Of a stretch of 64,000 bases of DNA, positions 51,862 through 53,555 are shown piece by piece. Position numbers and translations under genes: made by a program. Origin of the DNA: Escherichia coli (GTDB lineage: Bacteria; Pseudomonadota; Gammaproteobacteria; Enterobacterales; Enterobacteriaceae); the NCBI RefSeq assembly GCF_009931435.1, contig NZ_CP043414.1; one strand, written 5' to 3'. Under the pieces are notes generated by a model. That model searched no databases and was not told the origin of the DNA. It worked only from the letters and a program-made list of their open reading frames with translations. The number at the start of each line of letters is the position of its first letter. Position 1 is the stretch's first letter.

Positions 51862-52499
51862 TTACTCGTCGGCAGCGTAGCCCTGCGGCGGCAGACGTTG
51901 ACCATCCAGCCACGCGGCGTTTTCGTGCATTTTCAGACGACCATCGGCAAACCAGCTAATCACCAGTGGATAAATAGCGTGTTCCTGGGTTTGCACGCGG
52001 GCGGTGATGTCATCCTCCGTATCACCAGCAAATACCGGGACTTTCGCCTGTAAAATAACCGGGCCACCGTCCAGTTCATCGGTGACGAAATGCACCGATG
52101 TACCGTGCTCTTCATCGCCATTTTCCAGCGCCTGACGATGGGTGTGTAATCCGGGATATTTCGGCAGCAGAGAAGGGTGAATGTTCAGCAAACGCCCGGC
52201 ATAGTGGGAGACAAACGCCGGGCTGAGAATGCGCATAAAACCAGCCAGCACGACCACATCGGGTGCGTACATGTCGATTTCATGAATCAACTCCCGGTCA
52301 TAGGCTTCACGACTGTCAAACGCGCTGGCGATGAGCGTATGCGTTGCAATACCCGCCTGGCGGGCGCGTTCAAGGCCGAACGCGTCGGCCTTATTGCTGA
52401 AAACTGCCCGTACGGTGCCTTTAATTTTATTGGTTTTGCAGGAGTCAATAATTGCCTGCAAATTACTTCCGTTGCCGGAAATAAGCACCACAATATTCA

Positions 52500-52500
<1 letters not shown>
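51862..52500 (-). CDS. purN: Phosphoribosylglycinamide formyltransferase
   Basis: 212-aa [24 protein letters not shown]...; start overlaps purM stop (TAATG). Confidence 0.95.

Positions 52501-53555
<1,055 letters not shown>

Follow-up and report, generated by a model that had tools for sequence, protein, structure and literature searches.

We propose that the three gene junctions purM/purN, yfhM/pbpC and hyfI/hyfJ, which lie in a 64,000-nucleotide stretch of the Escherichia coli chromosome extending from iscA to hyfI (called the window here, with positions counted from its first letter), are, quite likely, best explained as a whole by ordinary stop-start junctions at which the downstream gene is translated by reinitiation with unequal output, together with a hairpin that favours yfhM over pbpC. 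The junctions are ordinary intra-operon ones, belonging to well-known operons (purMN, yfhM-pbpC and hyf) and to common spacing classes (−1, 0 and −8 nt); they are already known, being annotated in every E. coli genome, and with nothing new in themselves they are of low interest. The only new item is the hairpin, which lies just inside pbpC and is a modest, testable lead.

Geometry of the junctions and start codons

The features at and around the three junctions are as follows.

52500..53537, minus strand: purM coding sequence, AIR synthetase, 345 aa, GTG start; AIRS and AIRS_C domains, boundaries the same in K-12
51862..52500, minus strand: purN coding sequence, GAR transformylase, 212 aa; Pfam formyltransferase domain, residues 1-212 aligning with PDB 1C2T/1CDE/1GAR
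52498..52502, minus strand: TAATG stop-start overlap of purM and purN, spacing −1; read from the sequence, 100/100 nt the same as in K-12
7433..12400, plus strand: yfhM coding sequence, ECAM, bacterial alpha-2-macroglobulin, 1655 aa; lipobox LAGC, thioester CLEQ at residue 1189
12401..14713, plus strand: pbpC coding sequence, PBP1C, 770 aa; Transgly, Transpeptidase and BiPBP_C domains
12398..12403, plus strand: TAA-ATG abutment of yfhM and pbpC, spacing 0, same frame, without a Shine-Dalgarno (SD) sequence; read from the sequence
63237..63995, minus strand: hyfI coding sequence, hydrogenase-4 small subunit, NuoB-like, 252 aa; Pfam
62831..63244, minus strand: hyfJ coding sequence, HycH-family maturation protein, 137 aa; HycH domain from residue 7
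63237..63244, minus strand: ATGGCTGA, 8-nt overlap of the hyfJ start and the hyfI stop, spacing −8; read from the sequence
63249..63253, minus strand: GGGGG, SD-like sequence for hyfJ, 4 nt upstream of its ATG and inside hyfI; read from the sequence, −9.3 kcal/mol
63992..63995, minus strand: ATGA, 4-nt overlap of the hyfH stop and the hyfI start, absent from the first-pass annotation; from annotation and sequence

On the minus strand, the purM stop TAA (52502-52500) shares one base with the purN ATG (52500-52498), giving a 1-nt overlap that is read directly as GAA-TAA-TG in the context GTT ATC GAA TAATG AAT ATT. On the plus strand, the yfhM stop (12398-12400) abuts the pbpC ATG (12401-12403) with a gap of 0 and in the same reading frame (AGA CCG TAA ATG CCT). 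The third junction, again on the minus strand, is an 8-nt overlap, with the hyfJ ATG (63244-63242) and the hyfI TGA (63239-63237) both contained in ATGGCTGA (context GGGGGTTAC ATGGCTGA GGAG); in K-12 the overlap reads ATGACTGA. It is noted that positions 1-40454 of the window are 99.99% identical to strain 2020CK-00188, and that the junction geometry is identical in the PGAP annotation of strains 2020CK-00188 and E200086 and in the annotation of K-12 MG1655, with the identities of all six genes (purM, purN, yfhM, pbpC, hyfI and hyfJ) confirmed by Pfam. The gene names, coordinates and geometry that the first-pass annotation gave for the three junctions are thus right by direct inspection, by RefSeq, PGAP and K-12 annotation and by Pfam.

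The first-pass annotation had itself raised the risk that the downstream starts are mis-assigned, in which case the junctions would be annotation artefacts. This could be argued from the in-frame GTG at purN codons 4 and 5 and from the E. fergusonii records, which differ on the purN start (212 aa vs 213 aa). However, in the open reading frame listing purN, pbpC and hyfJ each begin at the earliest start codon that is possible downstream of an in-frame stop; the Pfam profile begins at residue 1 of PurN and at residue 7 of HyfJ; PurN residues 1-212 align with the 212-residue E. coli GAR transformylase crystal chains (PDB 1C2T/1CDE/1GAR), which start MNIVV; PbpC has no other canonical start ahead of its membrane anchor; and the independent PGAP and K-12 annotations concur. 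With the first-start positions, Pfam, the PDB alignment and independent annotation all in agreement, mis-assignment does not apply here and is dismissed, its chance being negligible.

Spacing classes and conservation across relatives

The three pairs are annotated adjacent operon genes on the same strand, and their stop-start distances all fall inside the range from −8 to +10 nt. This range contains 7 of the 33 co-directional neighbour pairs of the window (32 pairs from the annotated genes placed on the window, to which hyfH/hyfI at its edge is added), namely hyfI/hyfJ (−8 nt), hyfH/hyfI (−4 nt), purM/purN (−1 nt), yfhM/pbpC (0 nt), hscA/fdx (+1 nt), ppk/ppx (+4 nt) and yfgM/bamB (+10 nt). In E. 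coli 820 pairs fall in the class from −8 to +10 (Huber et al., PMC10666635), and −4, −1 and −8 are the three overlap classes enriched in all prokaryotes (review, PMC12548453).

In Enterobacteriaceae the purM/purN overlap persists in differing forms: TAATG in Salmonella and C. rodentium, ATGA in E. hormaechei, and TGATG or TTGA in E. fergusonii. With near and distant relatives taken together, purM and purN are adjacent in 9 of the 10 examined. In distant relatives the two genes are adjacent in 5 of 6, with spacings of −8, −4, +12, +23 and +116 nt, and since the spacing there varies so widely, the overlap is common and not universally required. Linkage of the two functions is known from elsewhere as well: the purMNH cistrons overlap in the pur operon of Bacillus subtilis, and in animals AIRS and GARTfase are fused in the trifunctional GART protein. 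What is alike among these systems is the gene order, purM then purN; what differs is the spacing (from −8 to +116) and the fact that the E. coli enzymes are separate proteins, present in unequal amounts.

The functional pairing of yfhM with pbpC, which the first-pass annotation had brought forward, holds as a fact of the literature, the pairing of A2M and PBP1C genes being an established observation (Budd et al. 2004, as cited in PMC3735191), and a scan of species-representative genomes bears out the adjacency, 76 of 80 loci having an A2M gene immediately 5' of pbpC. YfhM has the lipobox Cys (MKKLRVAACMLMLALAGC...), a thioester motif of the CxEQ type (CLEQ at residue 1189), and MG, bait-region and TED domains by Pfam, and pbpC follows it in the window with a gap of 0, which is the immediate adjacency of a class-1 A2M-PBP1C operon; the pair resembles the class-1 bacterial pairs in lipobox, CLEQ, the full bacterial MG domain set and the position of pbpC immediately 3'. 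In the class-1 A2M/PBP1C literature that was searched, no mention was found of the exact stop-start geometry or of a hairpin inside pbpC. In the 51 Enterobacterales the yfhM/pbpC spacing is kept at 0-13 nt: the gap is 0 at 27 of the 51 loci (Escherichia, most Citrobacter, Salmonella and Raoultella), 1 at 6, 3 at 5, 6 at 2 and 11-13 at 11.

Plausible translational coupling

The strength of the SD sequence was calculated as the pairing energy of the upstream region with the anti-SD sequence, and 43 genes were scored. By this measure pbpC has essentially no SD (+0.4 kcal/mol, 42nd of the 43 genes), as is also the case for ppx (+0.1 kcal/mol), which begins 4 nt after ppk, and the SD of purN is weak (−2.2 kcal/mol). 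The SD of hyfJ, with GGGGG placed 4 nt ahead of the ATG, is the second strongest of the 43 (−9.3 kcal/mol). Folding predicts that the pbpC start is paired in a stem, although not significantly (z −1.7), that the purN start is unpaired, in an AU-rich stretch flanked by two predicted hairpins, and that the fold at hyfI/hyfJ is no better than those of shuffles (z +0.2). Hence the features of poor self-initiation are present in different degrees, pbpC combining the missing SD with the predicted stem, purN combining a weak SD with an open start, and hyfJ having a strong SD. Occlusion of the start by RNA structure was rejected as a general explanation, as only the start at yfhM/pbpC is predicted to be paired. 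A promoter scan found no sigma-70-like promoter on the plus strand in the last 1 kb of yfhM; an RpoE SELEX peak has been reported inside yfhM.

The comparison across relatives bears on the same point. Where the yfhM/pbpC gap is 0-1, the SD of pbpC is absent at all 33 loci, with a mean of about +0.2 to +0.6 kcal/mol, and a weak SD is found only where the spacer is 11-13 nt, with −3 to −4 kcal/mol at 12-13 nt. With the SD absent at the tight junctions and appearing only with a spacer, the pattern is as reinitiation predicts. Of 5 native E. coli overlaps tested, 4 were coupled, with hyfH/hyfI strongly so in K-12 reporters, and one, bioBF, was not (Huber et al., PMC6728339). In an engineered series, coupling is most efficient at spacings from −4 to +3 and declines with growing overlap (PMC12548453).

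Based on the spacing, the SD strengths and the coupled neighbour hyfH/hyfI, it is plausible, and reasonable to infer, that translation is coupled at the three junctions. In the mechanism that we propose, the ribosome that ends the upstream gene would stay on the mRNA and reinitiate at the adjacent AUG. This would be the main route for pbpC, given its missing SD and the stem predicted at its start, and it would contribute substantially to purN, whose SD is weak, whereas hyfJ might also be started de novo through its strong internal SD once translation of hyfI opens the region. Thus, from these sequence features pbpC looks dependent on the ribosomes coming from yfhM, and purN looks partly so; hyfJ probably can also initiate on its own, and the unstructured AU-rich start of purN could permit independent initiation. 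An important point to note is that coupling of this kind would tie downstream translation to upstream translation without equalising the output.

The three pairs can be compared with the E. coli pairs coupled by termination-reinitiation, TeRe (Huber et al. 2019, 2023; Brown and Wade 2025). They are alike in being co-directional operon neighbours, with spacings of −1, 0 and −8 that fall within the predictive range from −8 to +10, and in the weak or missing independent ribosome-binding site of purN and pbpC; moreover, hyfH/hyfI, a neighbour in this window, is among the published tested examples. They differ in the strong SD of hyfJ, in the −8 class being less efficient than −4 to +3 in the engineered series, and in the unequal output seen in the purMN data given below.

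By contrast, the junctions could be regarded as neutral by-products of gene packing and of drift of starts and stops, with independent initiation and little coupling. This would agree with bioBF, which overlaps yet is uncoupled, with the spread of the purM-purN spacing from −8 to +116 across relatives, with the unstructured, AU-rich start of purN and the strong SD of hyfJ, and with the view that the abundance of such spacings is owed partly to the ease with which they evolve (PMC12548453). It would not be expected, however, that pbpC is without an SD in 33/33 loci at gap 0-1 and acquires an SD-like sequence only with a spacer of 11-13 nt, nor that its start is predicted in a stem, nor that 4 of the 5 E. 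coli overlaps tested, the neighbouring hyfHI among them, are coupled. We consider neutral packing improbable, and reinitiation is retained as the preferred explanation. Read-through of the yfhM stop codon to give a YfhM-PbpC fusion, which the shared frame would allow, was also considered and nothing supports it. In a search for start-site and coupling data, the TetRP supplements had no entries for the junction genes, and the kasugamycin translatome had, among these genes, only an uninformative hyfJ row.

Relative output of the paired genes

The first-pass annotation took such junctions to indicate stoichiometric coupling as well as co-translation. Since the 100 nt around the purM/purN junction are 100/100 identical between the window and K-12, the measurements made in K-12 apply directly to this junction. 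The translation efficiency in K-12 is 1.188 for purM and 0.617 for purN, a ratio of 0.52x (Burkhardt et al., PMC5318159, supplementary file 1); the ribosome density is 98.3 and 39.7, a ratio of 0.40x, and the mRNA level is 82.8 and 64.3, respectively (Burkhardt et al., PMC5318159). Among the entries listed in Table S3 of Zhao et al. (PMC6544118), PurM is present at 951 and PurN at 254 protein copies per cell, a ratio of 0.27x. The equal synthesis of 1:1 complex subunits is evidently not what is seen with densities of 98.3 vs 39.7 and copies of 951 vs 254, and PurN is made at roughly 0.3-0.4 of PurM.

For yfhM/pbpC, unequal output is argued from a strong, conserved hairpin situated shortly past the yfhM stop, within pbpC, as described below; among the entries listed by Zhao et al. 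(PMC6544118), YfhM is present at about 53 copies per cell and PbpC does not appear. For the third pair, the Pfam family matched by HyfJ, HycH, is described as a formate hydrogenlyase maturation protein, and from this description HyfJ would be of chaperone or maturation type, not a subunit.

If the junctions enforced co-translation and 1:1 synthesis because the paired proteins act together, one could understand why short overlaps are 4.5-fold enriched for subunits of heteromeric complexes in E. coli (PMC10666635) and why the A2M-pbpC pairing is widespread. This is inconsistent, however, with the PurN/PurM ratios of 0.40x in density, 0.52x in translation efficiency and 0.27x in copies, obtained in K-12 with the same junction. 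It also has against it that complex subunits are encoded by only 30.4% of the tight E. coli pairs, with 69.6% not encoding them (PMC10666635), that HycH is described as a maturation protein, that a terminator-class hairpin stands between the yfhM stop and most of pbpC, and that YfhM, at about 53 copies, has no PbpC beside it among the entries listed (PMC6544118). We therefore consider 1:1 synthesis very unlikely: stoichiometric coupling is contradicted for purM/purN by the K-12 translation efficiency, ribosome density and copies, and it is unlikely for yfhM/pbpC given the hairpin. A tight stop-start junction should not be taken as proof of equal output or of a physical complex.

The hairpin inside pbpC

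Two features follow the yfhM stop inside pbpC.

12422..12451, plus strand: conserved 12-bp GC-rich hairpin, pbpC codons 8-17; nine covarying pairs, 12423-12431 with 12442-12450
12452..12469, plus strand: pyrimidine/U-rich tail CCUUUUCUCCUUUUUUUU, 3' of the hairpin; encodes PFLLFF of the PBP1C membrane anchor

The hairpin was flagged as terminator-like by a terminator scan, with a 12-bp stem at 12422-12451 and then CCUUUUCUCCUUUUUUUU. It begins 22 nt after the yfhM stop, 8 of its 12 pairs are GC, and its sequence codes for PBP1C residues 8-17, where the membrane anchor begins. Its free energy is −21.2 kcal/mol, which is in the top 0.4% of local 44-nt windows, and that of the K-12 version is −20.8 kcal/mol. 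This stability is like that of the hairpins after operon-terminal genes, i.e., pepB (−21.3), ndk (−22.3), uraA (−22.2) and focB (−24.2 kcal/mol). The hairpins after purM (−14.6 kcal/mol, rank 6%) and hyfI (−12.0 kcal/mol, rank 15%) are unremarkable, and the stop of pbpC itself has no such hairpin afterwards (−3.2 kcal/mol).

In an alignment of the hairpin region from 32 Enterobacteriaceae, RNAalifold picks exactly this helix, with 9 pairs, 7 of which are compensatory (with changes on both sides). Some of the compensatory changes are non-synonymous, as in C. sedlakii, where GG->AA goes with CC->UU, and in Kluyvera, where GG->CC goes with CC->GG. In the real alignment 95.1% of the hairpin cells are paired, vs 84.4±1.2 in shuffles; the double-change cells number 29 vs 7.6±2.3 and the further pair types 18 vs 12.8±1.4, each value being reached in 0/500 shuffles. 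When the 3' partner was slid by 1-3 columns as a control, at most 72% of the cells were paired, and the covariation score was at most 0.227, compared with 0.451 for the real helix.

The feature was also looked for at other loci, by taking, from the 60 nt that follow the A2M stop, the 44-nt window of greatest stability and ranking it among all windows within ±1.5 kb. The post-stop window is in the top 2% at 59 of 77 loci, with a median rank of 0.5%; these loci include Xanthomonadales, whose hairpin sits within a long spacer between the two genes. For 52 Enterobacterales sequences, the median distance from the stop to the beginning of the stem is 23 nt and the median free energy −23 kcal/mol, and a U-tract, scored when 8 nt contain at least 5 U, is present at 29 of the 52 loci. 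The hairpins of Pantoea and Mangrovibacter look like canonical intrinsic terminators; in Escherichia and Salmonella, CC or CCC separates the U-tract from the stem, as in the tail CCUUUUCUCCUUUUUUUU of the window. An Rfam scan of the yfhM/pbpC junction region gave only chance-level matches and no family, a literature search on pbpC and terminator gave nothing relevant, and the Term-seq supplements of Adams et al. 2021 contain no yfhM or pbpC entry, so that no mapped 3' end was found there.

Readings of the hairpin

The stable GC-rich stem-loop shortly after a stop that marks an intrinsic terminator is present at 12422-12451, and the hairpin looks like an attenuator or 3' stabiliser. Compared with intrinsic terminators and intercistronic stem-loops, it is alike in having a GC-rich stem of the 9-18 bp kind about 20-35 nt after the upstream stop, often followed by a U-rich stretch, and in its stability, which matches that of the hairpins after the operon-terminal genes of the window. 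It differs in position, as the lack of an intergenic space places it within the downstream open reading frame, and in having an imperfect U-tract in Escherichia. The U-richness of the tail is, moreover, expected in any membrane-helix coding sequence, which weakens the terminator reading of the tail. A precedent is given by the REP stem-loops in malEFG, which are intercistronic stem-loops giving higher expression of the upstream cistron. On the sequence evidence, the most economical reading would be that the A2M gene is equipped with a stem-loop of its own that resembles a terminator or stabilises the 3' end.

In Enterobacteriaceae this stem-loop lies downstream of the pbpC start, and therefore pbpC expression would need read-through. 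The hairpin with its U-rich tail would most probably end or stabilise most yfhM transcripts there, leaving PBP1C at a small fraction of the ECAM level, and in this way it probably keeps pbpC expression below that of yfhM. In a fuller proposal, only an immediately reinitiating ribosome could melt the hairpin behind the RNA polymerase, as pbpC is SD-less and starts at the yfhM stop. This proposal, namely that the covarying hairpin is a previously undescribed yfhM attenuator or 3' stabiliser overprinted by the pbpC coding sequence, with coupling setting the read-through and hence a low PBP1C:ECAM ratio, is put forward only tentatively, as a possibility about which we remain rather doubtful. If the hairpin is indeed an attenuator, it would explain how far more ECAM (the protease trap) than partner PBP1C can come from one operon, and it would illustrate clearly how the amino acids of a membrane anchor can be constrained by an RNA signal.

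The hairpin may alternatively act in translation instead of as a terminator or stabiliser, for example by keeping the ribosome that has just terminated close to the SD-less AUG or by slowing elongation in pbpC. This would fit its start at +22 from the AUG, just past the footprint of an initiating ribosome, and the non-canonical U-tract in Escherichia. However, an equally strong hairpin is present right after the A2M stop in Xanthomonadales, where pbpC lies 50-600 nt further on, and the versions in Pantoea and Mangrovibacter resemble canonical intrinsic terminators. Since the Xanthomonadales hairpin is at the A2M stop despite the distant pbpC, the shared feature tracks the 3' end of the A2M gene and not the start of pbpC. 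We consider a role in translation unlikely.

Finally, we note that in the paralogous hyc operon of K-12 the spacings are −1 at hycF/G, −4 at hycG/H and −8 at hycH/I.

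A hairpin within pbpC and possible control of yfhM-pbpC

At the junction where pbpC (encoding PBP1C) directly follows yfhM (encoding the alpha-2-macroglobulin) without a gap, a conserved and covarying hairpin is present inside the pbpC reading frame, starting 22 nt past the yfhM stop:

12422-12469, +, 12-bp hairpin with U-rich tail, inside pbpC codons 8-23

The hairpin is terminator-like or putatively a 3' stabiliser. Neither a matching Rfam family nor, in the searchable literature, any account of such a hairpin was found. At the other end of the gene, no stable hairpin was found within 100 nt past the pbpC stop (14713-14860, +), with the best one having only -3.2 kcal/mol, whereas nearly every other operon-terminal gene of the window has a post-stop hairpin.

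It is also noted that in a published genomic SELEX table (PMC5493296) a binding peak of the RpoE (sigma-24) holoenzyme lies within yfhM, at K-12 position 2649866 (U00096.2), which is about 440 nt into the gene and corresponds to about position 7870 of the window. This gives a hint of envelope-stress control of yfhM-pbpC.

Other tight junctions and start codons

Besides the junctions listed in the first-pass annotation, three further tight junctions that are not in its list are present (negative spacing means overlap):

63992-63995, -, hyfH/hyfI, ATGA, spacing -4 nt
2952-2958, +, hscA/fdx, spacing +1 nt
49619-49626, -, ppk/ppx, spacing +4 nt

The coupling of hyfH/hyfI has been shown by experiment in K-12 (PMC6728339), and ppx has no Shine-Dalgarno sequence (anti-SD pairing energy +0.1 kcal/mol). 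The 8-nt hyfI/hyfJ overlap differs from that of K-12 by a single G/A at 63241 (-), reading ATGGCTGA in the window and ATGACTGA in K-12, with the difference altering both proteins, namely the final residue of HyfI (Gly/Asp) and residue two of HyfJ (Ala/Thr). In the annotation of the closest genome mapped to the window, hda has a CTG start codon (55958, +), as it also has in the K-12 annotation, where the gene is of equal length.

Ancestry of the window and stretches absent from K-12

The window (1-64000) appears, from sequence identity, to be of mosaic ancestry, with a breakpoint near 40454/43763: the identity to the closest strain, E. coli 2020CK-00188, is 99.99% at 1-40454 and only 98.5% at 43763-64000. 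The region of the yfhM/pbpC junction has an identity of only 90-95% to 5407 of the 5425 E. coli genomes, and the top species-representative match of PbpC is that of Escherichia whittamii (96%), slightly above the E. coli representative (95%).

Two stretches of the window are missing in K-12, where xseA adjoins yfgJ with nothing between; the second is also missing in the otherwise near-identical 2020CK-00188:

24345-35800, between yfgJ and xseA, the inverse-autotransporter gene sinH together with sinI and a gene of some 8 kb with an adhesion domain
40455-43762, between guaA and yfgI, 3.3-kb insertion with three ORFs:
40753-41529, -, 258-aa membrane protein with receiver domain
41617-42012, -, rve_3 integrase fragment
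42028-43542, -, 504-aa AAA_15/AAA_21 ATPase

The guaA-yfgI insertion is possibly a small defence islet, and the top PADLOC matches of its ATPase are PDC-M01A, AriA and PtuA/GajA-like.
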